A stretch of 37,577 bases of DNA from a virus. Lineage: Duplodnaviria; Heunggongvirae; Uroviricota; Caudoviricetes. The DNA is taken from IMG/VR virus record IMGVR_UViG_2529292717_000013; one strand, written 5' to 3'. This document shows positions 1-22,906 of the stretch, one piece after another (position 1 is the first letter of the stretch; each line of letters starts with the position of its first letter). A program made the translations under genes and the position numbers. The notes beneath the pieces were generated by a model. The model saw only the letters and a program-made list of their open reading frames with translations, ran no database searches and was not told the origin of the DNA.

Positions 1-1002
1 TTACCCTCTATTGTCAAAAGGGTTCAATTCAACAGCAGCCTCTAAATGACCTGGAGCAAAATGCGCATAACGCATAGTCATTTTTATATCGCTATGCCCC
101 AGTATTTTTTGCAACACAAGAATATTTCCGCCCCGCATCATAAAATGACTGGCAAACGTGTGACGTAGCACATGAGTTAATTGCCCATCAGGAAGCTCGA
201 TCTTCGCTCTCTTAATTGCAGCGTCAAAAGCCTCATAACATGGTGAAAATAGCGCTCCTCGTTTTTTAGGAAGCATAGCCTGCAATTGAGGTGAAATCGG
301 TACAGTGCGGTTCTTCTTTCCTTTAGTTTTAACAAATGTGATTCGACCGGGCAGTACTTGAGATTGCTTTAATCCTTCTGCTTCACTCCACCGAGCACCA
401 GTCGCAAGCCCAATACGGACAACAACCCCCAAATCTTTATTCCGTGACTCATCACACGCAATCAGAAGGCGTTCAATCTCATCTACATACAGAAACGCCA
501 GTTCCTTTTCTTCCTCACGAAACTTGCGAATACCAGTCAGGGGGTTTTCACCAGACCACTCCCCAAGGCGCTTCAGTTCGGCAAAAACAGCATGTAGATA
601 TGACTGCTCGCGATTAACGGTTGCTTCACTAAGTTTTTTCTTCCCCTTGGGATTCCATTCTCCTGATAGCCTTCTTTCCCGATAAGTAGCAAACATATTT
701 TTGTCAAACTGCGAAGCAAATGGATCTCCCAGCCTGGAACAAATCGCCTCAAGTTTGACTTTGCGCTCTGCACCAGAGGACAAGGTTTTACCGTACATCT
801 CAAACCAACGAGCAATCAACTCAGAAAGACGAGGACCAGAACCATCTTGAAACTCGTCTCCAACTCTACTATTCATTAAACGGCGCTCATAAGAGAGCGC
901 CTCACTTTTTGTCGCAAACTGTTTACGAATGCGTTTTCCCGATGCCCCGTAGGGATAACATTCGCAAAGCCATTTACCTGATGGAATCTTACGAACCGAC
1001 AT
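1..1002 (-). CDS. int: tyrosine integrase (phage integrase family)
   Basis: 333-aa ORF; C-terminal catalytic region with HxxR and a terminal Tyr motif (LRHTFASHF...MRYAHF); position at the prophage end. Confidence 0.9.
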   Translation of the reverse strand: MSVRKIPSGKWLCECYPYGASGKRIRKQFATKSEALSYERRLMNSRVGDEFQDGSGPRLSELIARWFEMYGKTLSSGAERKVKLEAICSRLGDPFASQFDKNMFATYRERRLSGEWNPKGKKKLSEATVNREQSYLHAVFAELKRLGEWSGENPLTGIRKFREEEKELAFLYVDEIERLLIACDESRNKDLGVVVRIGLATGARWSEAEGLKQSQVLPGRITFVKTKGKKNRTVPISPQLQAMLPKKRGALFSPCYEAFDAAIKRAKIELPDGQLTHVLRHTFASHFMMRGGNILVLQKILGHSDIKMTMRYAHFAPGHLEAAVELNPFDNRG

Positions 1003-1007
1003 TTTAG

Positions 1008-1313
1008 TTACTTATCACATAAATCAAATGCAGCCTTAGTGACATCCCCCAGACTCTTTTTTAACCCTGGGGCGGCATCATTATCTAGCCAAAATGGATT
1101 ATTGTTATCTAACGGTAACGCACCAAATGTTTTACCTTTTATTCGAGCCAAACCTGTAAGTGCATATAACTTATTATCGTCAAAATTCATTACATAAGGA
1201 TTACCATCAAGACACTGTAATTGAACCTCATCAGTATTAAATGGCCACACCCCATTGAAACTCTCACGTTCAATGGTTTTAAAAGGCATTGCGACGGCGG
1301 AAAAAGAAAACAT
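1008..1313 (-). CDS. hypothetical secreted/periplasmic protein, lysogeny-operon cargo; a signal peptide is encoded in the adjacent frame upstream
   Basis: 101-aa ORF; a start at about 1354 in the -1 frame encodes MKVKKVQLLVTFYLCFLF, a typical signal peptide, across a T5 homopolymer. No family recognised. Confidence 0.5.
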   Translation of the reverse strand: MFSFSAVAMPFKTIERESFNGVWPFNTDEVQLQCLDGNPYVMNFDDNKLYALTGLARIKGKTFGALPLDNNNPFWLDNDAAPGLKKSLGDVTKAAFDLCDK

Positions 1314-1383
1314 AGATAAAAAGTAACTAATAGTTGAACCTTTTTAACTTTCATATCATTACCTCAATTTAGCTCAAGTAAGA

Positions 1384-2034
1384 TTACAAATTAAAAAACG
1401 CTCTAGAAATGACACCGCCTACCAACCCCCCTACGCAGATAAAGAATATTATTTCTTTTGGATAAAGTCGGATTAATTCTGAAGCACGAAGTCGGACTTC
1501 TGGTAAGGTCGAACTCTCTGTGTGGCTTGATGCCGATTGTTGCTCTAACCACGACAATGCAGACTGTAACTGAGAACGAGTAAGATCGTTTAAACGTCCT
1601 GTACCGAAATTGATATGGCAATACCGCAGAAGTTTTTGTCGAAGTCCACAGTCTTCACTGTTACGTAGTAATAAACTTACAAGAGCCTTACAGGCATCAT
1701 GATCTTTACATCGCTCAAGCATTGCATGCAGAAAACTCTCCGCTGTTTTATATTGATTTACTGTCATATCATCAATACCAGCTACACCAATCTCCGCATG
1801 TACTTTTTGCCAAATAATAAACGCTTCAGTATTGCTAGCTTCTGCAATAGCAGCAACCAAGCTATTTAGCTCCTTACGCTGAGCCTTAAGCAAAGGGCGA
1901 TCGTCATCATCATTATTCGAAGGGATTGCGATATTGACGGTATGAGAACCATCATATCGCTCTATCTGAATATTCTTTTCGTGAAAATCACGCCCAGCAA
2001 CGCGATTGTTTGAACCGTTTGAGTTGACGGCCAT
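1384..2034 (-). CDS. hypothetical C-terminally membrane-anchored protein, lysogeny-operon cargo
   Basis: 216-aa ORF; hydrophobic C-terminal helix (IIFFICVGGLVGGVISRAFF); N-terminus shares the motif NNR(V/I)AGRD(F/Y)xE with the repressor C-terminus. Confidence 0.55.
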   Translation of the reverse strand: MAVNSNGSNNRVAGRDFHEKNIQIERYDGSHTVNIAIPSNNDDDDRPLLKAQRKELNSLVAAIAEASNTEAFIIWQKVHAEIGVAGIDDMTVNQYKTAESFLHAMLERCKDHDACKALVSLLLRNSEDCGLRQKLLRYCHINFGTGRLNDLTRSQLQSALSWLEQQSASSHTESSTLPEVRLRASELIRLYPKEIIFFICVGGLVGGVISRAFFNL

Positions 2035-2049
2035 GTCACCTCCCTACTA

Positions 2050-2454
2050 TCACCTGCCCTTAGTTTCGTTATAGTCACGACCAGCGATACGGTTATTACC
2101 ACCAGAAATATTTAACTCACGTCCTGATGGCTGAGTTTCCTTTTCACTGATCGCACCTTTTAAAGCCCCAATCACCGCGTTTTTCACATCTAACGAAGCT
2201 GCTCGAAAGCGAGTAATCAACTCCTGCTCATCATCGTTATAAGTTTCAGGTGAGTGAATTCCCAACACAACATACTGAACATCAAGGCCAAAACGAGACA
2301 GCGCTGCCAAATACGCAGCATCAGGAAAGCTATCTCCTTTCTCATATCTAAGCTGAGTTAGCTTTTTGACTCCACCAATGTCGCTCATGGCTACTTGACT
2401 AAGTCCCAATCTTTCCCTTTCCTCACGCAACCGCTGACCAATATCATTTTTCAT
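2050..2454 (-). CDS. HTH_XRE-family immunity repressor (C/CI-like)
   Basis: 134 aa; N-terminal HTH (QRLREERERLGLSQVAMSDIGGVKKLTQLRYEKG); divergent from the early operon, same strand as int. Confidence 0.8.
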   Translation of the reverse strand: MKNDIGQRLREERERLGLSQVAMSDIGGVKKLTQLRYEKGDSFPDAAYLAALSRFGLDVQYVVLGIHSPETYNDDEQELITRFRAASLDVKNAVIGALKGAISEKETQPSGRELNISGGNNRIAGRDYNETKGR

Positions 2455-2463
2455 ACAAAAACC

Positions 2464-2492
2464 TTGACAGGTATCTTTTTTGATACCAAAAT
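2464..2492 (+). promoter_or_regulatory. candidate early promoter (TTGACA-N17-CAAAAT) overlapping a perfect palindromic operator GGTATC-T6-GATACC
   Basis: Read directly in the 75-bp divergent region between the repressor and the first early gene. Confidence 0.4.
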
Positions 2493-2529
2493 GATTTCAC
2501 GAGCTATTAGATGATCACAATATACCACT

Positions 2530-2736
2530 ATGAAACAAGTTCTTCACGATACCAGATCACGCATTCCGCGTAACACCGCCACAGGTCCAAGACTGGCACT
2601 TCGGCTGTCCCTCGAGGAGCGAGCCGTCATTGATGAAATGGCAGCTAAAGAACAACGCTCATCCTCTAACATGGCGCGCATGATCTTCCTTCGCGGCCTA
2701 GAACTAACCCAGAAAGAACAAAACAAATCTTCCTGA
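2530..2736 (+). CDS. hypothetical early protein, first gene of the early operon (possible small regulator)
   Basis: 68-aa ORF immediately downstream of the switch region. Confidence 0.5.
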   Translation: MKQVLHDTRSRIPRNTATGPRLALRLSLEERAVIDEMAAKEQRSSSNMARMIFLRGLELTQKEQNKSS

Positions 2737-2752
2737 TCAAGAGGCTAGTGGG

Positions 2753-2956
2753 ATGTCAGGTATAACCATCAATATCAATGTGAATGCCCCCTATGTATCC
2801 CTGCAGAAATATGCAGAGATAACAGGTATCCCTCTTAATACATGCAAAAAGATGTTGGCTGACGGTCGAATTATTATCCGCCCCAAACGCGCCAAAATGG
2901 AAAAGCCTGAAGTAAACCTTGTGGCGATGTTAAAAGACGCTTTGACTAACAGCTAA
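2753..2956 (+). CDS. Cox/Apl-like HTH excisionase-regulator (tentative)
   Basis: 67 aa; HTH-like segment YVSLQKYAEITGIPLNTCKKMLADGRI; second position in the early operon. Confidence 0.5.
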   Translation: MSGITININVNAPYVSLQKYAEITGIPLNTCKKMLADGRIIIRPKRAKMEKPEVNLVAMLKDALTNS

Positions 2957-2977
2957 AACAATGAACAGAGCACCATC

Positions 2978-3328
2978 ATGAAAAAAAACGCTAATAATCC
3001 ATACTCCAAATTTCGTAATGGCGTAGAACGCCATGTACACCACGTCGCTACCAGTGCATCACGTAGTAACAGTCGCTATAACCTGAACGAGACGCACGCA
3101 ACACCGGATGGCCACGCTGTAAAACAAATCGGCGAGCATGCCTGGCTGATTGAGAAAGCTGGAATCGTGGTCCACAAATGCCCACGCAATCCGTTTACCG
3201 GAAACCGCATTTTTGCTCTAAGCAGTGGCGACAATCAGTTCGGGCAGGATTTCACATTATACGAAGCACTTCGCACGGTTGATCGTCTGCTTCGCGGGCA
3301 AAGTTTTATTAAACAGGCTGATTTATAA
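2978..3328 (+). CDS. hypothetical early protein
   Basis: 116-aa ORF in the early operon. Confidence 0.5.
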   Translation: MKKNANNPYSKFRNGVERHVHHVATSASRSNSRYNLNETHATPDGHAVKQIGEHAWLIEKAGIVVHKCPRNPFTGNRIFALSSGDNQFGQDFTLYEALRTVDRLLRGQSFIKQADL

Positions 3329-3338
3329 CAGGTGCTTT

Positions 3339-3626
3339 ATGACCAAAGACCATGCACAAGGTGTATTTATCCGTTTTATTGATTTTCGCGGTGAACTGTT
3401 ATTACGTGCATCCGCTATTGACGGAGTGACTCCGGCGGGTAAAAACGGAGCCGACGAAGCCACTTACGTTTATCTGAACGGCACGCGACTGCTTGTGGAA
3501 CTTCCGTACCAGACCGTACGAGAAATCATTAGCGAAGCTGAAAAGGCACGCCAGGTTAATGGCGATGAACCCTATATCGAAATTATTTGTATGGATTCAG
3601 AAGCTGAAATACAGAAAGCAGATTAA
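3339..3626 (+). CDS. hypothetical early protein
   Basis: ATG at 3339 in frame with the track ORF 3225..3626; 95 aa. Confidence 0.5.
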   Translation: MTKDHAQGVFIRFIDFRGELLLRASAIDGVTPAGKNGADEATYVYLNGTRLLVELPYQTVREIISEAEKARQVNGDEPYIEIICMDSEAEIQKAD

Positions 3627-3634
3627 AGGGCGTT

Positions 3635-3880
3635 GTGATGGGCAAAGAATATAAAACTCTCATTAACAAAGCACTTGAGCGTTTTTATTTTCGCTTAAGT
3701 GCATCAGGCGCTCATGCTGAACGTGCGGCCCGTGACTCATTGACCAGAGCAATCCGAAGTCTGTATGACGTAGCTTTTTACGCTGATGATCTGGATGCAC
3801 TTAACGAACTTTCCGAGCTGATCTGTGCCGCAGAATGCGGGGAACATATTGAACCGTATAAGCTGGGGAATATCGCATGA
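3635..3880 (+). CDS. hypothetical early protein
   Basis: 81-aa ORF. Confidence 0.5.
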   Translation: MMGKEYKTLINKALERFYFRLSASGAHAERAARDSLTRAIRSLYDVAFYADDLDALNELSELICAAECGEHIEPYKLGNIA

Positions 3881-3990
3881 GTATATTTATCTCATGGCTT
3901 GTTCTGATTATTTCGGTGGCCTGCGCTATTGGGATTATGCGAATTATTCATTCAATAAAAAAGATTGAACGCTTTTTCACTGGCGAATAA
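3877..3990 (+). CDS. small hydrophobic protein (37 aa), tentative
   Basis: ATGA overlap with the upstream stop; MSIFISWLVLIISVACAIGIMRIIHSIKKIERFFTGE has one predicted TM helix. Confidence 0.3.
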   Translation: MSIFISWLVLIISVACAIGIMRIIHSIKKIERFFTGE

Positions 3991-4076
3991 CAGAACAAAT
4001 AAAACCACAGATTAAATAAGAAAATGTAAAAACAATCCGCATTCGCGGAGGTATTCGCACACGCCAAGGAGGCGTA

Positions 4077-4280
4077 ATGGCAATTAAGCATTTTCCTGTC
4101 GTTCGTTTTACCTCCAGAGGGCGGGAATACGAAGTCGACGAACGCCTGATTACCACAATCGACAAACACCGTTCAGAAAAGGATGCACATCACATCTATC
4201 TCACTGACGGCACTTACTTCTGCGCCACGAATGTGGTGCGGGTGAACCTTATCCGACAGGTACAGGAGTCACGCAGATGA
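4077..4280 (+). CDS. hypothetical early protein
   Basis: 67-aa ORF with a strong RBS (AAGGAGG) upstream. Confidence 0.5.
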   Translation: MAIKHFPVVRFTSRGREYEVDERLITTIDKHRSEKDAHHIYLTDGTYFCATNVVRVNLIRQVQESRR

Positions 4281-4522
4281 CCATTCTGGACTATATTGCC
4301 GCCAATCCGGGGTGTAGCGGTGGAGAAATCGCCGCAGCACTGAATACCCCAACCACAGCCATTAATGCGGAGTTACGCCGACTCTGGCGCAGCGGTTCAG
4401 TCATAAGAAAAGAGCGCAAAACAGGCGGTCGCTTTTCTTACCAGATAAACCCGATGCCGTTCGGGTGTGGCAATCCACTTACCAACATGTTTAACCAGCT
4501 ACTGAAGGAAGCCAGAGCATGA
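4277..4522 (+). CDS. hypothetical early protein
   Basis: 81-aa ORF, translationally coupled (ATGA overlap). Confidence 0.5.
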   Translation: MTILDYIAANPGCSGGEIAAALNTPTTAINAELRRLWRSGSVIRKERKTGGRFSYQINPMPFGCGNPLTNMFNQLLKEARA

Positions 4523-4818
4523 GCGCCATCAACCACAAGGAATTACGCGAACTGGCGACTGACCTGCAACGAATGGCAACGCCTCAAAAATTACTGGCGT
4601 TTCGCGCAATGCTCTCGCCGTCTGCTGTGCTGGCACTGCTGGATGAGCTGGAGCACGCCAGAACCACACCTCTCGCCATTCGCCTGACGCTCCGTCATGA
4701 AATCGAGGATTTCTGCGCGACGTTGGAGGCGCCAGGCGAACCGGAAACGCCGGAAGCAATACAGCAAGAGCTGCTGCAACGCATTGACAAGGTTTTTGAT
4801 TTTTTTCTGAACCACTAA
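4519..4818 (+). CDS. hypothetical early protein
   Basis: 99-aa ORF, translationally coupled. Confidence 0.5.
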   Translation: MSAINHKELRELATDLQRMATPQKLLAFRAMLSPSAVLALLDELEHARTTPLAIRLTLRHEIEDFCATLEAPGEPETPEAIQQELLQRIDKVFDFFLNH

Positions 4819-4940
4819 GAAACCAGAACATGCACACACAAAAAAACCGCTTGCCATGCCGCAATCAGTCAGGTTACATTTCCGCTGCACCTCATAAAAC
4901 GGGTGCCGGGTTTCGCAGCCCGCTGACAAACGTAGCGCAC

Positions 4941-4962
4941 AACCGCGCCAGCGGTTTTTTTG
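4941..4962 (+). terminator. candidate rho-independent terminator (AACCGC-GCCA-GCGGTT + T7)
   Basis: Stem-loop followed by a T-run, about 120 bp after the 99-aa ORF. Confidence 0.4.
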
Positions 4963-5140
4963 TGCGTACTGTATCGCCACGTCTTTTTCGCATCTGAATT
5001 ATGGTGGGGCGTACGGGGCCGACTTCGGTCGGGCCGGGTTCTGCGTTTGCCGGTACTGCGAACCTCGTACGTCTCGCCACCCACAGTTTCGCAGCTCTGG
5101 ATGGTGAGTTTTCACAACTTACACACGTAGAGGCCACACC

Positions 5141-5371: not shown

Positions 5372-5522
5372 TTCCTGTTCCGGGCCTTTCCTGCACCTTG
5401 CGGCGGGAGGCCTTCGCACATCTGTAACAAGAGGATTGCCGCAATGATTCTCGCCAACGACTTTCTTGAATACCTGCTCAACACAGAACGTGATCTTGCC
5501 GTCGCGTGCGTGACGTTATGAC

Positions 5523-5813: not shown

Positions 5814-8633
5814 ATGACGGCAGAGTACATCAGGGACTGGCAACAACCGCGCCACGCAGTGGGGCGTGAAGGAACGGGGATCCCCGCTCCTGAATCCGCG
5901 CTTTCCTCCTGGCTGGATGCCTACCGGGCAGAGAACGAGCGCCGCCAGGAAATGGCTGATGCGGCGTTCTCCGCCACGCCGCTGGGCAACCTGATTAATA
6001 AAAGCCTGGACGCACAGGAAAAACAGGACAAAACCATCACACTGGCAGGAGACGCCAGAAAACAGGCACGTGGCGCGGTGGATGAAGCCATGGCCTCGCT
6101 GCGCCTGCTGCCGTCCTATCTGCGCGATCCGCTTATTCGCCACCTCTCCTTCCTGCGCAAAAAACAGGAAGCCGATCGCCGGAAAGGCAAAAAGAGCTGG
6201 CAGGCTGAACGCTACGCGCGCGGGACCCTGCGCAAAATATTCGAACGTCTGGATCGCACTGACGGGCGCTGGCTGACACCGGGTTATCGCTCCCTTGCCG
6301 GGCGCGAACGCCTGGACGATTTGCTTTACCTGCCGCAGCTCAACAAGCACCAGATACAGACGCTGGCCACCATGACGGCGGCGATGTTCAGCAGCACCTT
6401 CGAAAAACTCTGCGATGGCTTTGGCGCGACTGATGGCGAGCTGACCATGGATGTAACGCTGAAGGCTTATCAGATGCTGGCCCGCATGGCGTTACACCTG
6501 CACGCCATGCCTCCACATTATGACGCACTGACAACAGACAAAGACCGGAGGAACGAACCGGACACGGAGCTGCTGCCGGGCGCAATCCTTCGCTTGACCT
6601 GTGCGGAATGGTGGAAACGCAAACTATGGCTGTTGCGTTGTGAGTGGCGGGAAGAACAACTCCGCGCCGCCTGTCTGGTTTCCAGAAAAACATCCCCCTA
6701 TCTGAGCCAGGACGCGTTAAGCGAGTTTCGCGCACAGCGCGAGAAAACACGCGATTTCCTGAAAAGTTTCATGCTGGAAAATGAAGACGGGTTCACGATT
6801 GATCTCGAGACGGTGTATTACGCGGGAGTAAGTAACCCGGTTCACCGTAAGGCAGAAATGATGGCCACCATGAAGGGGCTGGAACTTCTGGCCGAAGCCC
6901 GTGGCGACAAAGCGGTGTTTCTGACTGTCACCTGCCCGTCAAAATACCACGCCACAACAGAGAACGGTCATCCGAACCCCAAATGGAACGGGGCCACCAT
7001 GCGCGACTCCAGCGATTACCTGGTTAACACGTTTTTTGCGGCGGTCCGCAAAAAACTGAACCGCGACGGCCTGCGCTGGTATGGCATCCGCACGGTGGAG
7101 CCTCACCATGACGGCACTGTGCACTGGCATATGATGGTCTTTGCACATCCGGACGAGATTGAAACCATCGTGTCCCACGTCTGCGATATTGCCATTCAGG
7201 AGCCGCCACGAGCTGGGCGATGACATAACTCCGCGTTTTAAGGCGGAGTACGTGACGGCTCAAAAGGCACACCAACCAGCTACATCGCCACCTACATCGG
7301 AAAGAACCTGGACAGCCGCGCCGTGGATGGCATCGACCCGAAAACGGGCAAGCCACGCGTTGACCACGAAACCGGAAAATCAATGGCCGAGAGCGTGGAA
7401 CGCGCCATCGGCTGGGCGCGCCTTCACCGGGTCCGCCAGTTCCAGTTCTTTGGCATCCCCTCCCGTCAGGTGTGGCGTGAACTCCGCCGCCTTGCCAGCC
7501 AGATGGCACGCAACCCGGAAGGCCCGCAACGGCTGAAGGATGACGCAATGGATGCGGTACTCGCTGCCGCTGATGCAGGATGTTTTGCCACCTACATAGA
7601 GAAACAGGGCGGCGTACTTGTTCCACGCAAAGACTACCTGATTCGCACCGCCTACGACCTCGCCGATGAGCTGAACGATTACGGCGAACAGAGCGTACAG
7701 ATTTACGGGATCTGGTCACCACTCATCGGGGAATCCTCCCGTGTGTGCACGCATCCGGATAACTGGAAGCTGGTAAGACGCAAACCGGAAGCGGAAGACA
7801 GCGCCCGCGAAAATGGTTTTGACCTTCAGGGCGGCCCTGCCGCCCCTTGGACTCGTGGCAATAACTGTCCCCGTGTACAGGAAACAGGCAACAGCGGGAC
7901 AGAACAGTCGAAAGAACGGCCAGCACCGTGGCCGCAGCTTCCTGACGGCGTTGAAGTGAACGAATGGATGCGCTCACTGAAACGGCACGAACGCCGGGCG
8001 CTGATGCGTTCGCTTCGTGACAAACAGGTAAAAAACAGCAGTGATGAAATGCAGAGCTGGACACAGAGCCGCAAACAGCAGCGGCCTTTGCCTGATAACC
8101 ACGAATTACTCGCTAAAGAATGGCGGGAGTCTGCCGAATCTCTCGGCCTGCATATCGGTGAACAGCAGATGCAGCACCTGCTACGGGGCGGCAGCCTGTA
8201 CGTTGACGGCAGCATCATTGCACCGCAGGGATATGAAATTGTACGCAAACCGGATACCCGCCCGGACAGCCGAATCACGCAGCTCTGGCAGCACCTGAGC
8301 CGTAATCACGGCGTAAGCAGCACGGAGATCCGCCATAACCCGGTCGCCAGCTATCTGGCACAGCTGGGGGCATCAGACCCCGAAGCCGCCGCACGCCTGG
8401 CATCCGCACTTCAGCAGGATCAGAACACCATGAAAACACCCGTTACCGTGCTTTCTGACATGCTGCGCGCCATCCGCGACGCAGAGCACGCACAGAGAAT
8501 CAGTGAAACCACTGAACGCGCCAGCCGCAAAGCAGACCTGCTGCAGGGTGGCCTGACCAGTGGAAACAAAAAACAGACAGAAACGGGATCCACAAATCCC
8601 GTAAATGAGCAAAAAACGCGCCGCGATATATGA
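5814..8633 (+). pseudogene. A: replication initiation endonuclease A (rolling-circle initiator, GPA family); frame interrupted at about 7195-7270
   Basis: Track ORFs 5814..7223 and 7323..8633 are in the same frame, separated by in-frame TGA (7221) and TAA (7239), while the +1 frame is open across the gap. HWHMMVF and YIATYIGKNLD motifs present. Confidence 0.8.
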
Positions 8634-8678
8634 AGCGCGCACAAAACAGGCGAAAGCGGGATTTAAAAATCCCGTAAA
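8583..8678. promoter_or_regulatory. candidate ParR-binding site / parMR promoter region (two palindromes with ATCCCG half-sites)
   Basis: ACGGGAT-N6-ATCCCGT and CGGGATTT-AA-AAATCCCG; the motif AAATCCCGTAAA occurs twice; about 35 bp upstream of parM. Confidence 0.35.
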
Positions 8679-8709
8679 CGGTTAATTAACCAACATAAGG
8701 AAAATCGAC

Positions 8710-9669
8710 ATGAAAATTTGTATCGACGACGGCTCCACCAACATCAAGCTGGCATGGACTGAGAACGGCGAACGCCGCAACGCCATCAGCCCGAACAGCT
8801 TCAAGTCGGAATGGTCTGCGCCGTTCGGTGGCACGCATCCCGCGAACTACATGCTTGATGGCGTGCGCTATGGCTTTGATCCGGTCAGCGATCGTTTTGT
8901 CCAGACGACTGACACGCAATACCAGTACAGCGATGTGAATGTAATCGCCATTCATCACGCGCTGGTCAAATCAGGCATCACGCCACAGGAGGTGGATGTG
9001 GTTGTCACCCTGCCACTGAGCGAGTATTTCGACACAAACGCACAGCCGGACATGGCCAACATCAACCGCAAAAAAGCGAACGTCATGCGCCCGGTGGAGT
9101 ACCAGAACGGCGAAGCATTCACTATCCGTAACGTACGGGTTATGCCTGAATCCATTCCGGCTGGCTTTAAGGCACTGGCTGACATGAGTCCGTTTGAATC
9201 CCTGCTGATTGTGGATTTGGGCGGAACCACGCTGGATGTGGCAAAGGTTCAGGGGCAGCTGGCAGGTATCAGCCAGGTGTTTTGCGATCCAAACGTAGGC
9301 GTTTCCCTGATGGCTGATGCCGTGCTGTCGGTGATGGCCACTAACGGTATGCGTACCAGTCACCACATCGCCAATACCATTATTGAGCACCGTCACGATG
9401 AAGCCTGGCTGCGCCAGCACATTCACAATGACGCGCATTACAACAGCCTGATGGCGGTTATTCGTGAAAAGGAGGAGACACTGAAACAACGAGTGATCCG
9501 CGCGCTGGCGGGTTTTTCCGGTTACGGGCGGGTGATGGTTGTCGGTGGAGGGGCGGAGATTGTGGCACCCGCTATCCGCGAAGCCTGCGGAGTTAATGCG
9601 ACTTTCATCGCGGACGGGGTGCCACAGTTTGCTCTGGTTAATGGGCTGTACGCAATGAACAAGGAGTAA
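8710..9669 (+). CDS. parM: actin-like segregation ATPase ParM/StbA
   Basis: 319 aa; N-terminus MKICIDDGSTNIKLAW and downstream blocks closely resemble plasmid R1 ParM as remembered. Confidence 0.85.
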   Translation: MKICIDDGSTNIKLAWTENGERRNAISPNSFKSEWSAPFGGTHPANYMLDGVRYGFDPVSDRFVQTTDTQYQYSDVNVIAIHHALVKSGITPQEVDVVVTLPLSEYFDTNAQPDMANINRKKANVMRPVEYQNGEAFTIRNVRVMPESIPAGFKALADMSPFESLLIVDLGGTTLDVAKVQGQLAGISQVFCDPNVGVSLMADAVLSVMATNGMRTSHHIANTIIEHRHDEAWLRQHIHNDAHYNSLMAVIREKEETLKQRVIRALAGFSGYGRVMVVGGGAEIVAPAIREACGVNATFIADGVPQFALVNGLYAMNKE

Positions 9670-9673
9670 ACCA

Positions 9674-9985
9674 ATGACGACACCAACCAGAAGAATAAGT
9701 TTCTATCTGAAGCCAGCTGCCGTCAAGAACGAAGGAGAAGCATGCGCATGGCTGGACAGCCTTACACCAGAAGCCCGCAAAAGCGGCCAACGCGTGGCTT
9801 TTCTGGCCGGGCTGGCACTTCTGAAGACGAATCCGGCAGAGGCTTACCGACTGGCCGCATGGGCTGATGATGAGATGTTACCTGTGACACAAATCAGCTC
9901 AAAAAAGTTTGAAGCACAGTCTGCACCAGTGGCTAAGATAACCAGCCAGATGGCTGGGAATATCCGGGCGTTATTTCCTGGGTAA
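9674..9985 (+). CDS. parR: ParR/StbB-like centromere-binding protein
   Basis: 103 aa; RRISFYLKP...AFLAGLALLKTNP...IRALFP resembles R1 ParR; immediately after parM. Confidence 0.7.
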   Translation: MTTPTRRISFYLKPAAVKNEGEACAWLDSLTPEARKSGQRVAFLAGLALLKTNPAEAYRLAAWADDEMLPVTQISSKKFEAQSAPVAKITSQMAGNIRALFPG

Positions 9986-10105
9986 AAGCATCTGCGCGAA
10001 AAATGCTCACATTTATAGAAACAGTATCATTCCATTTGGCGCACTTACTTCAATAATCGATCTGTTAAACAAATAGATTGTCTATTATCTATCGATTAAA
10101 ACGAT

Positions 10106-10170
10106 CAATTATCTTGACAGTAATGTGCCTTTTTGTAAGATCGTTCGCATTGTGAGCGACAAGATAATTG
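10106..10170 (+). promoter_or_regulatory. candidate promoter (TTGACA-N16-TAAGAT) bracketed by an 11-bp inverted repeat CAATTATCTTG / CAAGATAATTG
   Basis: Read directly; the -35 hexamer overlaps the left arm. Confidence 0.35.
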
Positions 10171-10247
10171 CGCGGCATTGTCCATGCAAAACGCCCCAAT
10201 AGCAGCAACTATTGGGGCGTAGAACTCGGTCGGACTCACTTAACCTG

Positions 10248-10331
10248 ATATGCGTGCCTTCCGAAGTAAATCAAAATGTGCGTCGTATATTTTATTGCTT
10301 ACACGCACCTCTGTAAAGGCACGCATATTTT
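10248..10331 (+). terminator. large hairpin (13-bp perfect inverted repeat ATATGCGTGCCTT, 55-nt spacer with nested inverted repeat) followed by a T-run; candidate attenuator in the ORF89 leader
   Basis: Inverted repeat arms at about 10248-10260 and 10316-10328, then TTTTT; ends about 20 bp before the ORF89 start. Confidence 0.4.
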
Positions 10332-10349
10332 TCCTATGAGGTAAATAAA

Positions 10350-10619
10350 GTGCGGGCTAAAACAGGTATTTGCAAGAATCCTCATCGTTATAACCCAACA
10401 TTTCTGTCTCTCCCTGAATATCAAGGACAAGAAGGTCGGCACAAATGCGCTGCCTGTGCTTTTGAGCTAGGCATAAAAGATGCGCTTGAAGGACGCGCTA
10501 TGGCTCAGAATGATTTAGTTTTAGCTAACATTCCGTTTAGCCAGGCTGGAACTGTAAGGCACAGAGATGCTTATGAAGCATATGTTCGTGGTTGGCGATT
10601 AATACACAGCAACAATTGA
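10350..10619 (+). CDS. hypothetical Cys/His-rich small protein (hotspot cargo)
   Basis: 89-aa ORF with GTG start and GAGG RBS; CKNPHRY...HKCAACAFE suggests metal binding. Confidence 0.5.
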   Translation: MRAKTGICKNPHRYNPTFLSLPEYQGQEGRHKCAACAFELGIKDALEGRAMAQNDLVLANIPFSQAGTVRHRDAYEAYVRGWRLIHSNN

Positions 10620-10627
10620 TATTTTTG

Positions 10628-10651
10628 AAGCGCCGATAAGGCGCTTTTTTT
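10628..10651 (+). terminator. rho-independent terminator (AAGCGCC-GATAA-GGCGCTT + T-run)
   Basis: Directly after the ORF89 stop. Confidence 0.6.
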
Positions 10652-11179
10652 GTTTGCACGATAGTGCACAAGTTTGCACAATTTTTTTGAACGACTTTTT
10701 GTACTTCCGGCCCGCGTGGCGGCTGGATCCGTCAAGGATCCGTACGTGCACAAAAAACGCGTTTTTTCTACGCGCAGGTGACGGGGGAACAGCCCGCGTT
10801 TCAGGGGGTAAATAGCATTCCCTGAACGATGTCGCAGAGACACAACAGAATGGCCATATTTCTCACGCTGAGCATGAAAAAGGCGTGAGGGCTTTTGATT
10901 TGATGGGGTGAAAGGTAAGGCCGTCAAAATCGCACTGAGGCAGCGAGAACATACAGTCAACGTGGTGGGATTGCGTAAGAGTCTGACCGTCGATGGTGGC
11001 GATAAACTGGAAGGCGTCGTGAAATTATCTGATTGATACAGGAGCTGGAGAGTCGGGGCATAAATTTTTTATGCCCCGGCGAAGCAGCAGACAAGCGAAG
11101 CGCGTCAGCGATACGGCACCTTGCCGACCATACTTCGTAAGTGCAAAATACGAGCAAAGAAATCAATGGAGGCTGTCTT

Positions 11180-11704
11180 ATGGTCATTAATTACAAGCAG
11201 TTAAGAGAAAAACGGGAGCAGGTAAAGGAGAGCTTTCGCCGCAATGAAGATCTGACCCCGCTTGTACGCCTTGCCCAGGGCATTGTTGATGCTTATGAAA
11301 TCTCGCTGGAGCTGCCATCACAGACCTGGACAGATAGCGACGGTAATCGCCAGCATTACGTTTCATGCGGACTGGAAGCAGCCGAAGGATTTCGCAGAAT
11401 GCCTTTATCTCAGATCCCTGCCGCTACCCCCAAAGCAAGGGGCGGCAATGATGAGCGAAAACTGATTTTCAGCATTGAGACAGTGGTTGACGACACACCT
11501 GGCGAAGTCGCCTTCGTGCATACTCCTCTTTCGATCGCAATGTATAACGATGAAATACAGGTTCGCGTTAATAATAATATCGTGCCACTTAAAGAAGGTA
11601 ATTCACCCTACACCACCGTTTGTGAAGCCATTCAATATTACGTTTTCTCTGAAATTGATAATCTCAAGCCTGACGGCACCCAGAAAATGGTTCAGCTCTG
11701 GTAA
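11180..11704 (+). CDS. hypothetical protein (hotspot cargo)
   Basis: 174 aa from the ATG at 11180 with a GGAGG RBS 7 nt upstream; no family recognised. Confidence 0.5.
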   Translation: MVINYKQLREKREQVKESFRRNEDLTPLVRLAQGIVDAYEISLELPSQTWTDSDGNRQHYVSCGLEAAEGFRRMPLSQIPAATPKARGGNDERKLIFSIETVVDDTPGEVAFVHTPLSIAMYNDEIQVRVNNNIVPLKEGNSPYTTVCEAIQYYVFSEIDNLKPDGTQKMVQLW

Positions 11705-11735
11705 AAAGGACAGCCCCATCACGGGGCTGTTTTTT
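11705..11735. terminator. bidirectional rho-independent terminator between ORF174 and Q
   Basis: A-run, ACAGCCCC-atcac-GGGGCTGT, T-run. Confidence 0.6.
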
Positions 11736-12765
11736 CATCAAGAAGAGCATAAGAGTTAAAACGGATCACCTCTTCGCCAAGCCAGTCATTGATGTGCTTC
11801 ATGGCCTCCATAACGGGCATCAGCTCGTTAATTGCGTAAACCCGCGCGGCCTTCTCCACATCACCAAACGCACTTTTTTCGCCCGGCATCGCCCCCATCA
11901 GTTGCGGCGGAACACGGTGCGCAGCCAGCACATCATCACGGGATGCCGCCTTAACATTCATGAACTCATCTTTTGCGGTGATCTGCTGGAACGGCAAAAT
12001 TTGCACCCCCTCTTTGCCCCCGTTGGGCGCATGAATGAGCACGTTTTTAAACGCACCACCACCACGTGCCCCCTGTAGCGTTTCTTTCAGGGAGTCCATG
12101 CTTTCGCGGTTTACCTGCGCTGCACCGATGTAGATGATGCACCCGGCGTGGGATCCGTTGTCGTAGTACAGTTTTCTGAACATGTCCGCCGAATGAGAAA
12201 GGCTGGCCGAGAGTAATGCGCCAAGATATTCCGGCATGCCGTAGATTTCCTGGTTAATATCCGGATTCATCAGGTGGCACACTTTGCCAGGACGAAACTG
12301 AAACGCGTCCTTGCCATCCTGCACATACCACCATGATTCAAGATCGCTTCCGCGTCGCATGTATTTCGCCAGGGCGTGCCGTAATTTAAGCGGTTCGCCG
12401 AGCATATTGCTCCGAAGCTCAAGGAATGCGTTACCGAACACAAACCAGTCCAGCGCCAGCGCCGAGAAATCCTGCCGGGAAAGCAGCGGGTGCGGAATAT
12501 AGCAGCCGAGCAATACATTGCGCTTAAAGTAAAGCGCAGACTGATGCCAGGACGTTTGCCGGGCAGCTCTTGCCAGACCGTACCAGTCCACCGGGGTTTC
12601 ATACCACCGCCCGTTATCAGCACAGTACATATTGTCCAGCAGGTCATGCCCGGTCAGGCGATAAGGACCATCAAATGTGAATGCACTGAGCGATGATTCT
12701 TTCCTGAGCGCATCAGCGAGATCAATGCGTGAACTCATGCGCACTTTTTTATTTTTTCTGCTCAT
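11719..12765 (-). CDS. Q: portal protein
   Basis: 348 aa; homology to P2 gpQ by recollection; adjacent to and co-oriented with the large terminase. Confidence 0.9.
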   Translation of the reverse strand: MSRKNKKVRMSSRIDLADALRKESSLSAFTFDGPYRLTGHDLLDNMYCADNGRWYETPVDWYGLARAARQTSWHQSALYFKRNVLLGCYIPHPLLSRQDFSALALDWFVFGNAFLELRSNMLGEPLKLRHALAKYMRRGSDLESWWYVQDGKDAFQFRPGKVCHLMNPDINQEIYGMPEYLGALLSASLSHSADMFRKLYYDNGSHAGCIIYIGAAQVNRESMDSLKETLQGARGGGAFKNVLIHAPNGGKEGVQILPFQQITAKDEFMNVKAASRDDVLAAHRVPPQLMGAMPGEKSAFGDVEKAARVYAINELMPVMEAMKHINDWLGEEVIRFNSYALLDEKTAP

Positions 12766-14516
12766 CAGAACTCCATAACCGTGAAACGCTCGTTTTCTCC
12801 TTCGCCGCCAATCGGTTCATTAATGACAGCAAGCATGGTTGCCCACGCAAGGTCGCCGTGGCTGATCCCCCTCGCTCGGTCCGTTTCGTAAGTGATAAAG
12901 CCGCCCGGTGTTTTCACCTTACGCACGGCGTTAAAGGCCGCGACCAGCTCGCGTTCGGCACGATCGTATTCCCACCGCCCGGCACGCATTATTTGCAGCA
13001 TTTTCAGTACCAGCGACCGTTTTGATGACAGCGTGAAGGTGTACGGAATAGCAGCAGGGAAAAACCGTTTCACTATCTGATAAACGGCATCCCCGTGCCC
13101 GCCAGTCGCATCAATGCCGATGTGTTCCACGTTGTAGCGACACGTGAACTCTTCAATGACTCTGGCCTGTTCTTCAAACTCCAGCCCCTGAACGCGTCGC
13201 GTCTCCACCGTTCGAAAACGGCCACCAGGAACAGCCGGAGGAACCACCACGGACACCGCGCCGCTGTCGCCGTTTCCACTGCTGCCGTTTGCGTCATACC
13301 CAATCCATACCGGACGATTCCCCATCGGGCGGGGAGCAAAAGGTTTCCAGTCTTTCCAGTCGTCGTATCCATCAACACCGCAGCCAATCAGGATATTCAG
13401 GTTAAATGCCGATTCCCCTTCGCGGACAAACTCACACATATAGAGATTGCGGAACTCGTCTTCGGTGTTTTCATCACGAATTTCATCAATATCGGTGTGT
13501 TTCCAGCCGTGATTAACCACATCTTCCAGCGTGACAATTTGCCGCCACGTCCGGTCGGGGCAGATAAGTCCGTTATGCAGCGTTTTCCAGTCCACAGAAA
13601 AACGCTGGCGTTTATGCGCGGCCTTTTTCTCGTTCCAGCGGTCGCCGTTCCAATAGACGTATGCCTCGTGCGTTTCGGTGGATGGCGTGGAGAAGTAGGT
13701 GCGCCGCAGTCCGCTGAGGGTTGCCATAGCGCCAGCCACCTTGCGCAGTTCAGCAAAGCGACTGACCCAGAAAAATTCATCAAAATAAAAATTGCCTGTG
13801 TAGGACTGTGCCGTCGCAGCAGAAGTACCGAGAAAATGCAGTTCTGCGCCGTTGGAGAGGATGATTTTATCGCCCCCTTTCAGCTCCACATCAACTTCAG
13901 CCGCGGCCTTCTGAATAATGCTTTTAAACTGGAACGCCTGACGACGCGACGCAGACAAAAAAATCTGGTTACGCTGGTAAGGTTGTGCCACATCGTCACG
14001 CAGCGCCATCAGCAGTGCTTCCTGTGCAAAATACCAGGTCGCCCCAATCTGTCGGGATTTCAGGATCATCCTGTTACGTATCCCGGCTTCACTGCAAAGG
14101 GTCAGGGAGTCAAACCAGCCCCGCTGATGCCACTCCAGCCTGCTGATGATTTTTTCCCGCAGTGCGGCAATCTGCTCCGGCGTGAAATGATTTTTAAGTT
14201 TTTTCGCCCGGCCTTTCTTTCCTGTGGCCGTCGCATCCGGCTGGCCATCATGCAGTTTTTTAAGCTGCCGGGTCAGCAGGTCTATTTCCTTAAAGTCACC
14301 ACCTGTTTTATTCTGTTTTTCAGTAAGCTGGATGAGGCGCGCATCGATGGACTGCGTGACACGCTGCACGGGTGGCGTTTCATCCCACTGGTCGCGTTTT
14401 TTCCACGCATAAATCGTGTTCGGGTTTATTCCCATCAGACGTGATATTTCTGCGGGCGGATAACCCTGCCAGTAAAGTTGCCGCGCACGCTGGCGCACAA
14501 AAGCGTCCTGAATCAT
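12765..14516 (-). CDS. P: terminase large (ATPase) subunit
   Basis: 583 aa; P2 gpP-like. Confidence 0.9.
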   Translation of the reverse strand: MIQDAFVRQRARQLYWQGYPPAEISRLMGINPNTIYAWKKRDQWDETPPVQRVTQSIDARLIQLTEKQNKTGGDFKEIDLLTRQLKKLHDGQPDATATGKKGRAKKLKNHFTPEQIAALREKIISRLEWHQRGWFDSLTLCSEAGIRNRMILKSRQIGATWYFAQEALLMALRDDVAQPYQRNQIFLSASRRQAFQFKSIIQKAAAEVDVELKGGDKIILSNGAELHFLGTSAATAQSYTGNFYFDEFFWVSRFAELRKVAGAMATLSGLRRTYFSTPSTETHEAYVYWNGDRWNEKKAAHKRQRFSVDWKTLHNGLICPDRTWRQIVTLEDVVNHGWKHTDIDEIRDENTEDEFRNLYMCEFVREGESAFNLNILIGCGVDGYDDWKDWKPFAPRPMGNRPVWIGYDANGSSGNGDSGAVSVVVPPAVPGGRFRTVETRRVQGLEFEEQARVIEEFTCRYNVEHIGIDATGGHGDAVYQIVKRFFPAAIPYTFTLSSKRSLVLKMLQIMRAGRWEYDRAERELVAAFNAVRKVKTPGGFITYETDRARGISHGDLAWATMLAVINEPIGGEGENERFTVMEF

Positions 14517-14670
14517 TGCTCCCCCTGAGTAATTACAGGAAGATTACCCGCGCGCGAAACCGTTCTCCTTAACCCCCTGTTCTGGCCGTTTTCTTACAAC
14601 AAAAGCCCTTTGTATCAGCCTGTTACGCTTTGCCATCATGACTGAAGAACCAGTCAGAGGGGCAAAAACT

Positions 14671-15507
14671 ATGGCTAATGAAAAAAAGACATCCCGCAAA
14701 AAGTTTCGCGTGGCTGTCTCCGGATCAACTGTTGATGGCCGTGAAATCAGTCCGGTGCATCTGCGTGAAGCCGCCGAGAACTTCAACCCGGATGTTTACG
14801 CTGCCCGCGTGAACGTTGAGCACTATCTCTCGCCATGCCCGTCAAGCGAATTTTCCGCAATGGGCGATGTCACCGCACTGAGTACGGAAGACATTACGGA
14901 AGGTCCGCTGGCCGGACGTACTGCGCTGTATGCAGAAATCGAACCGACCGAGCGCATGAAGCAGCTTGTCGCGGACGGCAAGAAAATCTATTCCAGTATC
15001 GAACTGCACCCGCAGTTCTCCGTTAACGGGCGCGCCTATCTGGTCGGGCTGGCGATGACCGACACCCCGGCAAGCCTGGGCACTGAGCGCCTGAAATTCA
15101 CGGCACAGCAACGTCAGGCGGTGATGACGTTCAACAGTGTCCAGGGTGAAGCACCGCTCATTTCCGAAGCCATCGAGTCTGAAATCATCGAAATGGCAGA
15201 ACAACGCCAGGAAGAAGGCACCCAGTGGTTTAACCGCGTAATGGGGATTATTGGTCGTGGCCGCAAAGCGGATGACGCCAGTTTCTCCCGTATTCAGGAA
15301 GCGGTGGAAGGCGTCGCAACGTCACAGGCCGACATTATCGACCGTTTTAATGTGCTGGAAACCCGCCATCAGCAGGACCGCCAGAAAATCACGTCACTGA
15401 CCACAGAGCTGACAGCACTGAAGGAAAAACTGCGCACGCAGGACGGCGATCCGCAGAACCGCTTCACCGCAACGGGCGCAGCCTCCGACCAGCTGGCTGA
15501 CTTCTGA
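14671..15507 (+). CDS. O: capsid scaffolding protein
   Basis: Start at the internal ATG 14671 (MANEKKTSRKKFRVAVSG...) after a GAGGGG RBS; P2 gpO-like. Confidence 0.8.
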   Translation: MANEKKTSRKKFRVAVSGSTVDGREISPVHLREAAENFNPDVYAARVNVEHYLSPCPSSEFSAMGDVTALSTEDITEGPLAGRTALYAEIEPTERMKQLVADGKKIYSSIELHPQFSVNGRAYLVGLAMTDTPASLGTERLKFTAQQRQAVMTFNSVQGEAPLISEAIESEIIEMAEQRQEEGTQWFNRVMGIIGRGRKADDASFSRIQEAVEGVATSQADIIDRFNVLETRHQQDRQKITSLTTELTALKEKLRTQDGDPQNRFTATGAASDQLADF

Positions 15508-15529
15508 TAAGACAAAGGAGCAAATTTTT

Positions 15530-16582
15530 ATGAATCTGGTGATGTCAGATATTACCCGCAACAAGCTGGGTTGCTATATGGCGCAGCAGGCGTCGCTTAA
15601 CAATATCCCGGTATCTGCACTGGTATCGCGATTTACCGTGGAACCCTCGGTGCAGCAGCGTTTTGAAAACGCAGTAAAGGAGAGCACTGAATTTACAAAA
15701 AAAATTAACGTGTTCGGTGTGACTGACCAGAAAGGCGAAAAAATCCTCCTGGACACCACCGGGCCGATTGCGCGCACGAATACCAGTTATGACGGCACAA
15801 AACGCCGTAACCCGAATAACGTGGTTGATCTGAAAAACCGCAAATACCAGTGCGAACAGGTGAACTACGACACGTTTATTTCGTATCCGCAGCTTGATGC
15901 CTGGGCGGCACACCCTGATTTTCAGTCCCGCGTCAGCACACAGATTGCCCGGCAGGTGGCGCTTGACCGCATCATGATCGGTTTCAACGGCACGTCTCAC
16001 GCGGATGAGTCCAACTTCAGCACTAACAAGCTGCTTCAGGACGTTAACGTGGGATGGCTGGAGCACATCAGAACCGACGCCAGCGAGCGCGTTATGAATG
16101 ATGTAACGCTGACCTCCCGCAACATGGACAACACCGTGGCGCACGCGGGTAAATATGCGAACGCTGATGCACTGGTACAGGACGCGCGCTCATCCCTGCT
16201 GGATGAATGGCACAAGGAAGCTGACGACCTCGTGGTGATTATGGGGCGCAACCTGTTTAACTCGCTGCGTCTGCCCGTGCTGAACAGCATCAGCGGCCAG
16301 AATCCCAATGCGGAATTACTTGCCGGACAGCTCATCCTGTCATCGCGCGCCATTGGCGGGCTGGATGTATTCCTTGCGCCGTTCTTCCCGGATGCAACGA
16401 TGCTGATCACCTCGTTCAACAACCTGTCAATTTACTGGCAGAAAGGAACAATGCGTCGCCTGATGAAAGACGAGCCGGAATACAACCGCATCGCCACCTA
16501 CCAGTCCATCAATGACGCTTATGTCGTTGAAGACTATGGCAAGTGCGCGATGGTCACTGGCCTGAAGTTCGCCGACAGCTAA
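15530..16582 (+). CDS. N: major capsid protein
   Basis: 350 aa; P2 gpN-like. Confidence 0.9.
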   Translation: MNLVMSDITRNKLGCYMAQQASLNNIPVSALVSRFTVEPSVQQRFENAVKESTEFTKKINVFGVTDQKGEKILLDTTGPIARTNTSYDGTKRRNPNNVVDLKNRKYQCEQVNYDTFISYPQLDAWAAHPDFQSRVSTQIARQVALDRIMIGFNGTSHADESNFSTNKLLQDVNVGWLEHIRTDASERVMNDVTLTSRNMDNTVAHAGKYANADALVQDARSSLLDEWHKEADDLVVIMGRNLFNSLRLPVLNSISGQNPNAELLAGQLILSSRAIGGLDVFLAPFFPDATMLITSFNNLSIYWQKGTMRRLMKDEPEYNRIATYQSINDAYVVEDYGKCAMVTGLKFADS

Positions 16583-16627
16583 TCACCTCACGGCGGGCAT
16601 CATGCCCGCCTGTAACGGAGAGAAAAA

Positions 16628-17422
16628 ATGATTACTCCTGCACAGCAACACTGGCAGAACGTGATGGCACAGCGCGCAGGCCGGGCGAATGAAGGCGTGG
16701 ACCATGCCGCGCGTACCGCGCATGAAGAGGTGCTGTATCGTCTGCGTCTGGCACAGGCCCGGCTTAAGGGCGTACAGGCCAGAAGCGCGAAAGCCGCCAT
16801 CAAAAAAGAGTTATTGCCGGACTTTTCCGGCTGGATTGAGGGAACGCTGGAGGCTGACGGCGGGCAGCAGGATGAAGTGATTGCCACGCTGATGGTGTGG
16901 GCGATTGACTGCGGCGATCTTCCGCTTGCGCTGCGTATTGGTGCTATGTGGTCCGTCACAACCTCATCATGCCGGATAACTTTGGACGTACTGCTGCCAC
17001 GGTACTGACCGAAGAAATCTGTAATCCGGTACTGACGCAGGCCGGGACGGATGCCGACGCGGATTTGTCCGCCTTTATCGAACCACTGGACACCCTCCGG
17101 GAGATTGTCACCGACCAGGACATGCCGGACGAAGTGCGCGCCAAATTATGCAAGCGTGCGCCTTTGCCCGCCGTGGCCTGAGATGCGGACAGCATGGCCT
17201 TCACTGAAGCTGCTGCGCGAAGCGATGCACCTGAACCCGAACGCAGGTGTGAAACGCGAGATTGCAACCCTTTCCCGCGCCCTGAAAAAAGCCGATTCCG
17301 CAGCCGCACCAGAAGATGCCAGCACACCGCAGGCGCAGGACGAAAGCAGCAAAAGTAAAAAGACAACGCGGAAGCCTGCAACACGAAAAACCACCGCGAC
17401 GCAGAAGGCGAAGCGCGGTTAA
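16628..17422 (+). pseudogene. M: terminase small (endonuclease) subunit; two frame changes at about 16945 and about 17178
   Basis: Three track ORFs (16628..17008, 16948..17181, 17051..17422) in frames 2/1/2 each match consecutive segments of gpM, including MPDEVRAKL and AGVKREI. Confidence 0.8.
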
Positions 17423-19490: not shown

Positions 19491-19942
19491 TTCCCTGCGT
19501 GAAGCCATGACCCGTTCATGCCGATGGTGTCAGGCCAACCCGGAAAAATTCACCATTTTCGTGGAGAGCGGCAACATTGAAACGACCGGAGAAACGCCCT
19601 CGTTTGTTTAACGCTATCAGATGGTGATGTTTGTCATGGATTACGCCGGGGAGCTGGACGACCTCACGCTGCCGCTACTGGCGTGGTTATCCGAAAATCA
19701 GCCACAGTTGTTGCTCAATCCGGAGCGTAATCAGGACATCAAATTCTCCGCCGTTATCAATGACGATGACAGCGCCGATCTCCTGTTTACGCTCCCTCTG
19801 CGGGAACGCGTTCGCATACGCGCACAGTCAGGGGACACCGCAGGCAGAACACCTGCCGGAGCCAAAACCCCGTCTGCCATCTTCCGAAGGCGACTGGTCG
19901 CATGTATTCCAGGATGTGACGTGGGGTGAAAGCGATGGATAA
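19477..19942 (+). pseudogene. R: tail completion protein R; in-frame TAA at 19609-19611 plus a frame change near 19830-19860
   Basis: MLKTDSLR... N-terminus like gpR; the stop aligns with a K/E position of homologues; the C-terminal HLPEPKPRLPSSEG is in another frame. Confidence 0.7.
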
Positions 19943-20570: not shown

Positions 20571-21289
20571 GCGCAGAACTCATGCGACTGCTGAGCAATA
20601 TCATCCGCACCGGGATCATCTCTGAAGTTGATGAGAAGTCCTGGCGCGTGCGCGTTCGCAGCGGCGAACTGGAAACAGGCTGGTTGCGCTGGAACACCAC
20701 GCGCGCGGGAGCCTTCAATGTGTGGCTGCCGCCATCACCAGGCGAACAGGTGGTAATTGCCTGCATTGGCGGCAACCCGGAAACCGCCATGATAATTGGC
20801 AGCCTGTGGAGTGATGCCAGTCCGGCACCCGGCAAAAGCCTGAAAGAAATCGTGATCAGCGCGCCGGACGGCGCGGTGTTCCGCTACGACGCGGACGCAG
20901 GCGCACTGAGCGCCAGCGGCATGAAAACGGCCACTTTACAGGCATCCGTCAGCGTGAAACTGGATACGCCCGTCGTGGAATGCACAAACCTTCTGAGAAC
21001 GGCGACGCTTGACGTCACAAAAGGAGGAAAGATGAGCGGCAATATCACGCACAGCGGCGGCAACTTCACCTCAAACGGCATTACCGTGCATACGCATAAA
21101 CACGGTGGCGTGAAAGGCGGCGCGATTCGACAGGAGGCCCGCAGTGACAACCCGCTACACAGGAATGAATCCGGACGGAACGGGAAACCTGAACGATATG
21201 GAGCACCTGAAACAGTCAGTCAGGGACATCCTGACCACCCCGCTGGCAAGCCGGGTTATGCGACGGGAATATGGCAGCCTTGTGCCTGA
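20567..21289 (+). CDS. V: baseplate assembly protein V (spike); 3' end probably frame-shifted, true stop likely about 21147
   Basis: GNPETAMIIGSLWS and THKHGG motifs; the last ~45 codons of the observed ORF read through the W start and look non-protein-like. Confidence 0.8.
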   Translation: MSAELMRLLSNIIRTGIISEVDEKSWRVRVRSGELETGWLRWNTTRAGAFNVWLPPSPGEQVVIACIGGNPETAMIIGSLWSDASPAPGKSLKEIVISAPDGAVFRYDADAGALSASGMKTATLQASVSVKLDTPVVECTNLLRTATLDVTKGGKMSGNITHSGGNFTSNGITVHTHKHGGVKGGAIRQEARSDNPLHRNESGRNGKPERYGAPETVSQGHPDHPAGKPGYATGIWQPCA

Positions 21290-21493: not shown

Positions 21494-21496
21494 ATC

Positions 21497-22904: not shown

Positions 22905-22906
22905 GT

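Follow-up and report, generated by a model that had tools for sequence, protein, structure and literature searches.

The interrupted replication gene A of a P88-like prophage in ETEC Escherichia coli 2867750 is very probably a draft consensus error

GpA proteins are HUH-type rolling-circle initiators, which nick the replication origin and bind the 5' end via a tyrosine, a mechanism known from phage P2. The closest described member of the P2 gene A family (HUH endonuclease superfamily) for the present locus is GpA of phage P88 (gp16, 'replication endonuclease', YP_009113059.1, 940 aa). We analysed a window of 37,577 nt, which contains a P2-like prophage of the P88 group with the integrase at its left end and the E. 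coli host genes RES, TagO and flk on its right. Over the first 25 kb of the window, 79% of the sequence could be aligned with P88 at 97.0% identity, and the gene order from int to ogr is collinear. The gpA coding region (5814-8633, + strand), assigned to a replication initiator and HUH nicking endonuclease of a P88-like (Xuanwuvirus, Peduoviridae) prophage on the basis of P88 identity and of the Pfam family Phage_GPA, shares 97.4% nt identity with P88 gp16 over the full length. The HUH motif, the Y-x-x-x-Y motif and the domain match are common to both, and the neighbours are also alike, with a gp15-like gene upstream of gpA and ParM and a partition protein downstream. Unlike P88 GpA, however, gpA of the window has three bases fewer, its domain is cut at position 280 of 321 and its two motifs are separated by two stops.

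Two prophages at the yecA site, in E. coli ETEC-2264 (the closest relative with a closed genome) and H10407, were also compared. Both share the left junction of the window (yecA-int) and encode an intact 935-aa replication endonuclease, and the window is 100% identical to ETEC-2264 over positions 1-5000 and 8000-17000. In contrast to the window, these prophages carry none of the 44 single-base dropouts described below, and their right junction differs (ogr-hok-tRNA Leu/Cys/Gly-pgsA). The third system for comparison is the collapsed-repeat consensus error of short-read drafts. Such errors are restricted to repeated DNA and fall where the copies differ, with alternation of two alleles from SNP to SNP and a contig path jumping between copies, all of which are shared by the window.

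Translation from the ATG at 5814 proceeds through VEPHHDGTVHWH to IAIQEPPRAGR, where a TGA is met (7221-7223, + strand). The same frame then reads HNSAF up to a TAA (7239-7241, + strand), beyond which it continues into GTPTSYIATYIGKNLD, while the +1 frame contains no stop from 7141 to 7536. The two stops and the open +1 frame had been described in the initial annotation and were confirmed by our translation. The +1-frame product at 7204-7251 is RHELGDDITPRFKAEY, a stretch that intact P88 GpA has without any difference, and alignment with P88 placed the GpA residues RHELGDDITPRFKAEY(V) in an out-of-frame stretch from 7204 to 7253 (+ strand). The stops are thus due to an excursion of the frame rather than to two nonsense substitutions, as had been supposed.

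As written, the gene is divided into two ORFs. ORF1 (5814-7223, + strand, 469 aa, deposited as EMV59254.1) ends at the TGA at 7221 and contains the HUH motif, the H-W-H (7122-7130, + strand) of HHDGTVHWH (7104-7130), without the catalytic tyrosines. ORF2 (7323-8633, + strand, 436 aa, deposited as EMV59255.1) starts with GTG and corresponds to the C-terminal half of GpA. A search with ORF1 gave a match to Phage_GPA (PF05840) of 377 bits (cut-off 31.4) covering profile positions 1-280 of 321, compared with 429 bits and positions 1-321 for intact P88 GpA, whereas ORF2 alone matched no Pfam family. The Y-x-x-x-Y catalytic tyrosine motif, YIATY, lies in the original frame at 7281-7295 (+ strand); like the HUH motif, it was read from the translation. 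With the TGA at 7221 and the TAA at 7239 between them, the two motifs are not part of one polypeptide. The initiator is therefore not encoded intact in this record, in agreement with the initial annotation, and gpA as written is certainly non-functional. From its family membership, the gene would be expected to encode a site-specific nicking endonuclease for the phage origin that becomes covalently attached.

Alignments with P88, ETEC prophages and a further four phage records revealed that the lesion consists of three single bases that are absent in comparison with every intact homologue, giving a gene of 2820 nt instead of the 2823 nt of intact homologues. Two non-adjacent A residues are missing at 7201/7202 (+ strand), where CAG GAA GAC CGC has become CAGGA-G-CCGC and the frame moves to +1. 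The third base is missing at 7253/7254 (+ strand), where GT[C/A/T]GAC has become GTGAC and the original frame is regained. The frame is therefore shifted by -2 and then by -1, with a net loss of 3 nt, or one codon. The 17 codons in between are displaced to the +1 frame, so the entry frame meets the TGA and the TAA, and these codons sit between the HUH and Y-x-x-x-Y motifs. The initial annotation had proposed a pair of compensating 1-nt indels; the frame does leave and return as proposed, but through three 1-nt deletions rather than two indels. When the three bases were restored, a single 940-aa ORF was obtained in which the Phage_GPA domain is complete and organised as in P88, with both motifs together.

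All three dropout sites in gpA are polymorphic columns in a panel of 120 IMG/VR loci. The first column at 7201/7202 is divided between GAA and GAG (114:6) and the second between GAC and GGC (118:2), and the column at 7253 contains C in 94, A in 22 and T in one of the panel sequences. The panel includes an allele, CAGGAGGGCC, with G at both of the 7201/7202 sites. Comparing CAGGAGGGCC with CAGGAAGACC and removing both differing columns yields exactly the CAGGAGCC of the record. Around the break the sequence is a mosaic of two known alleles, one like that of ETEC-2264 and the other like that of L030, which change over from SNP to SNP with zero private bases. Over gpA as a whole, at least six parent switches were required, even with 129 candidate parents.

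The break appears to be private to this record. A 161-nt query (7150-7310) found none of 1305 complete-genome E. coli records at ≥99% identity, meaning that none of them has the break; the best E. coli matches were 161/164, with the three gaps as the sole differences. Exact scans with both deletion junctions gave no match in genome_contigs or in viral_contigs (IMG/VR), and an exact scan with the first junction gave none in metagenome_contigs; the source contig is itself absent from these collections. A pattern search of IMG/VR at the first site yielded 120 loci, and all of these contain both bases, a spacing that the pattern itself required. EMV59254.1 and EMV59255.1 each occur on one contig only, AQDF01000042.1, among ~15 billion proteins. 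A conserved two-ORF organisation, which had been named as the alternative that would overturn the idea of a broken gene, is thus contradicted by the E. coli records and by the IMG/VR junction scans. In two other phage records of the group, 520873 and 503458 (NC_049344 and NC_049341), small indels here and there in gpA have led to its annotation in 3-4 pieces. These indels are at other positions (e.g. 6159 and 7031) than in the present record, so that a split gpA is not a conserved organisation. Neither of the two 940-aa GpA proteins that repair could give was present as an exact sequence in the protein collection, a result that fits a chimeric consensus and a unique allele equally well and does not discriminate between them.

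Similar dropouts were found across the prophage. Compared with ETEC-2264 and three further relatives, the window has 44 deletion events (47 bases) that are private to it and zero private insertions, and at least 12 phage genes are broken (gp15-like, A, M, R/S, V, W, J, I, H, tape measure, sheath and D). The events are grouped in patches, of which gpA (7201-7253) is one. Two private 1-nt dropouts (5502-5512, + strand) lie in the P88 gp15-like gene upstream of gpA, with a net change of -2 nt; the two columns vary within the IMG/VR panel and the gaps are present in none of 81 panel members. Further patches were located in gpM, encoding the terminase small subunit (16944-17200, + strand, net -6 nt), in a gpR/S-like tail gene (19817-19823, + strand, net -2 nt), and from the baseplate genes V, W and J through tail gene I to the start of the tail fibre gene H (21121-23094, + strand), where 15 bases are missing. 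The tape measure gene (28133-28357, - strand) has lost nine bases in 225 nt, and the last patch (31147-32218) comprises losses in the sheath gene (3 nt), in the RBS of gpD (31583) and in gpD itself (6 nt). The host flanks on the two sides (4187 nt on the left and 4176 nt on the right, ~8.4 kb) contain zero 1-nt gaps.

The positions of the dropouts follow the differences between related prophages. In total, 29 of the 44 deletions fall at columns where four relatives differ, against a background of 3.2% of aligned columns (binomial P = 6e-33); here the relatives stand in for the putative second prophage copy of strain 2867750, making this a test of inter-copy difference by proxy. Gap placement at the polymorphic dropouts is unambiguous, as the bases on either side agree in every sequence. 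The other 15 dropped bases are non-polymorphic among the four relatives, while in the IMG/VR panel all five dropouts near gpA are on polymorphic columns. At four dropped columns in the tape measure gene (28133, 28144, 28185 and 28357) and three in the baseplate J gene (21878, 21889 and 21906), the yecA-site relatives L007 and L009 differ from the flk-site relative L010.

The path of the source contig is also informative. The window derives from contig AQDF01000042.1 of the draft assembly GCA_000354815.2 of ETEC E. coli 2867750, a CS7 ETEC strain (PMC6301781). A literature search for the WGS accession AQDF00000000 returned nothing, and the strain name was found only in a phage-susceptibility paper without assembly details. 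The left neighbour of the prophage in the contig is tyrP-yecA, as in ETEC-2264 and H10407. The yecA prophage of ETEC-2264 ends on its right in ogr-hok-hyp-tRNA Leu/Cys/Gly-pgsA, whereas the window from ~32,930 is a near-exact match to the flk-site prophage of CH4804, used here as the flk-site proxy, and runs into hok-RES-Zn ribbon-TagO-flk. The zone in which the contig ceases to follow the yecA-site prophages and takes up the flk-site prophage, with hok, RES, TagO and flk in the host flank beyond, was placed approximately at 32850-32980. A distance of ~470 kb, with genes such as accD and folC, separates yecA from flk in ETEC-2264, where the two loci are in direct orientation, so a genuine join would have removed a large piece of essential DNA. 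The contig path is thus inconsistent with a viable chromosome, and the simpler reading is that the assembly entered one prophage and exited a similar second one. ETEC-2264 itself was considered as a strain with a second P88-like prophage at pdxB/flk, but pdxB abuts flk there and this was ruled out.

We therefore consider it very probable that the break in gpA is a draft consensus error produced when two co-resident P88-like prophages were merged. Strain 2867750 would hold two closely related prophages, at yecA and at pdxB/flk, and the draft assembly would have joined reads from both into one contig over their common stretches. At some of the sites where the copies differ, the consensus may have written a gap in place of either base. 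Such an origin is consistent with the clean unique flanks, with errors at inter-copy differences (by proxy) and with the non-viable contig path. The interruption is best not taken for a real feature. The gene itself is a standard gpA for a phage group that is well known, and in the real phage its product is most likely an intact protein of 940 aa. A plain sequence error, which the initial annotation had itself allowed for, is the better explanation given the SNP-site dropouts and the mismatched flanks, and the implied view of a defect specific to gpA of a prophage is not upheld, since the 44 dropouts lie in at least 12 phage genes, at SNP sites and between impossible host flanks. Accordingly, EMV59254.1 and EMV59255.1, both entered as 'bacteriophage replication A family protein', and at least 11 other broken phage genes of the contig should not be taken as evidence for a defective prophage or a split GpA. 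The value of the observation lies in quality control, not in biology: deletion-only dropouts at inter-copy SNPs, clean flanks and mismatched junctions form a practical signature of collapsed prophage pairs.

Generic low quality of the sequence, with random base-calling or polishing errors in thinly covered patches and no second prophage copy, is an unlikely explanation. Deletion-only, patchy events that are mostly outside homopolymers would be compatible with it, and so would records 520873 and 503458, in which gpA is fragmented elsewhere. However, polymorphic columns were struck 20 times above expectation, the 8.4 kb of host flank was spared, and the mismatched flanks are left unexplained. 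Two particular forms of such error were ruled out. Most of the dropped bases stand alone in the reference (run length 1), and homopolymer or 454-type errors were rejected on this ground; and only three of 112 private substitutions are within 60 nt of a deletion, showing that substitutions are not clustered with the deletions, as low-quality patches with miscalls would require.

Real pseudogenisation appears quite improbable as well. On this account the prophage is defective and decaying, the three 1-nt deletions in gpA are true and rolling-circle initiation no longer takes place, which would accord with the non-functional state of gpA as written. Real lesions do occasionally occur in related prophages of closed genomes: in ETEC-2264 a DUF2511 gene is frameshifted and a tail gene contains an internal stop, and in H10407 an IS30 lies in gpD. 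Neutral decay, however, yields far more substitutions than indels, whereas the window has 44 deletions against zero insertions and essentially no private substitutions nearby. The mutation spectrum is thus not a mixed one, and the positions track polymorphism; with the P value given above, the deletions coincide with inter-phage SNP sites, and we know of no mutational process that targets deletions to such sites. No lesion is shared with relatives or other records, the host flanks are clean, and the contig topology is non-viable. Were the lesions real, they would leave the prophage incapable of replication, and its mutational pattern would be without precedent; the evidence points strongly in the opposite direction.

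It is conceivable, though highly improbable, that the deletions are real and arose in a hybrid formed by recombination between two co-resident P88-like prophages, in which error-prone repair of heteroduplex mismatches removed single bases at those mismatches; the product would be a phage unable to replicate, its -1 lesions lying exactly where SNPs had been. A gpA that functions as two ORFs or is recoded, by a programmed frameshift out and back or as a split initiator, can be given almost no credence, since, despite an open +1 frame that encodes conserved residues, it would require two opposite-sense shifts within 52 nt in an arrangement found in neither the 1305 E. coli records nor the IMG/VR scans, where the first-site loci are full-length within the spacing searched for, and unrelated structural genes are broken by the same dropouts.

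Two further observations concern the distribution of the dropouts. Long phage stretches, for example from 7300 to 16900, are free of them; for these, the merging of two prophages would have to be supplemented by assuming that the copies do not differ there or were resolved. In seven of the 12 genes (A, M, J, I, T, sheath and D, which are all the genes with at least three bases lost) the net loss is divisible by 3. The merging of two prophages does not predict these multiple-of-three losses, and they were treated as coincidence (binomial ~P = 0.07). In six of the seven genes premature stops lie inside the shifted stretches, demonstrating that the losses are not functional compensation and ruling out selection for frame restoration.

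Losses of single bases in the window were not confined to gpA, the replication initiator gene. Beyond its three missing bases, 41 further private deletion events were detected, in which bases are absent from the window only, compared with ETEC-2264 and three further relatives (39 × 1 nt and 2 × 2 nt). Besides gpA, these private deletions lie in patches at 5502-5512, 16944-17200, 19817-19823, 21121-23094, 28133-28357 and 31147-32218, and they disrupt no fewer than 11 further phage genes (gp15-like, M, R/S, V, W, J, I, H, tape measure, sheath and D); an additional event, at 31583, falls in the RBS of gene D. In each gene that has lost three or more bases, the loss is divisible by three (A 3, M 6, J 9, I 3, T 9, sheath 3 and D 6), and the frame-shifted stretches still hold premature stops in six of these seven genes. 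The multiples of three are possibly a coincidence, and no explanation for them was found.

Contig AQDF01000042.1 joins the left, yecA-side junction of one P88-like prophage to the right, flk-side junction of another (hok-RES-Zn ribbon-TagO-flk), with the change from yecA-type to flk-type prophage sequence near 32850-32980. Because a closed relative has the two junction sites approximately 470 kb from each other and in direct orientation, the contig (window 1-37577) is probably chimeric. At the prophage end, an ORF for a Hok/Gef-family toxin adjoins ogr and is followed by a RES-domain gene (NAD+ phosphorylase type), a zinc-ribbon gene, TagO and then flk, the toxin and later genes being covered by 33183-33320 and 33739-34563.

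The N-terminal half of gpA (6532-6552) displays a 15-nt in-frame length polymorphism relative to the prophages of the ETEC strains ETEC-2264 and H10407; the window carries the P88-type long form (940 aa), whereas the two strains encode 935 aa. In the RefSeq phage records 520873 (L005, NC_049344) and 503458 (L006, NC_049341), small indels scattered through gpA have led to its annotation as three to four separate proteins, and these indels likely reflect sequence-quality problems there too. Two genes follow immediately 3' of gpA, at 8710-9985, as they do in P88: one for a ParM-like actin-type segregation ATPase of 319 aa, the other for a small partition protein of 103 aa. Together they constitute a plasmid-type partition module within an integrating P2-like phage.

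The tail-fibre region (23083-25866) has a sequence unlike that of its relatives, and most of 24,090-25,690 gave no alignment of ≥93% identity with the four relatives compared. The DNA invertase and the second fibre/assembly cassette that P88, ETEC-2264 and H10407 possess are absent from this region, in which the invertase is represented solely by a 46-aa invertase-like remnant with 70% identity.
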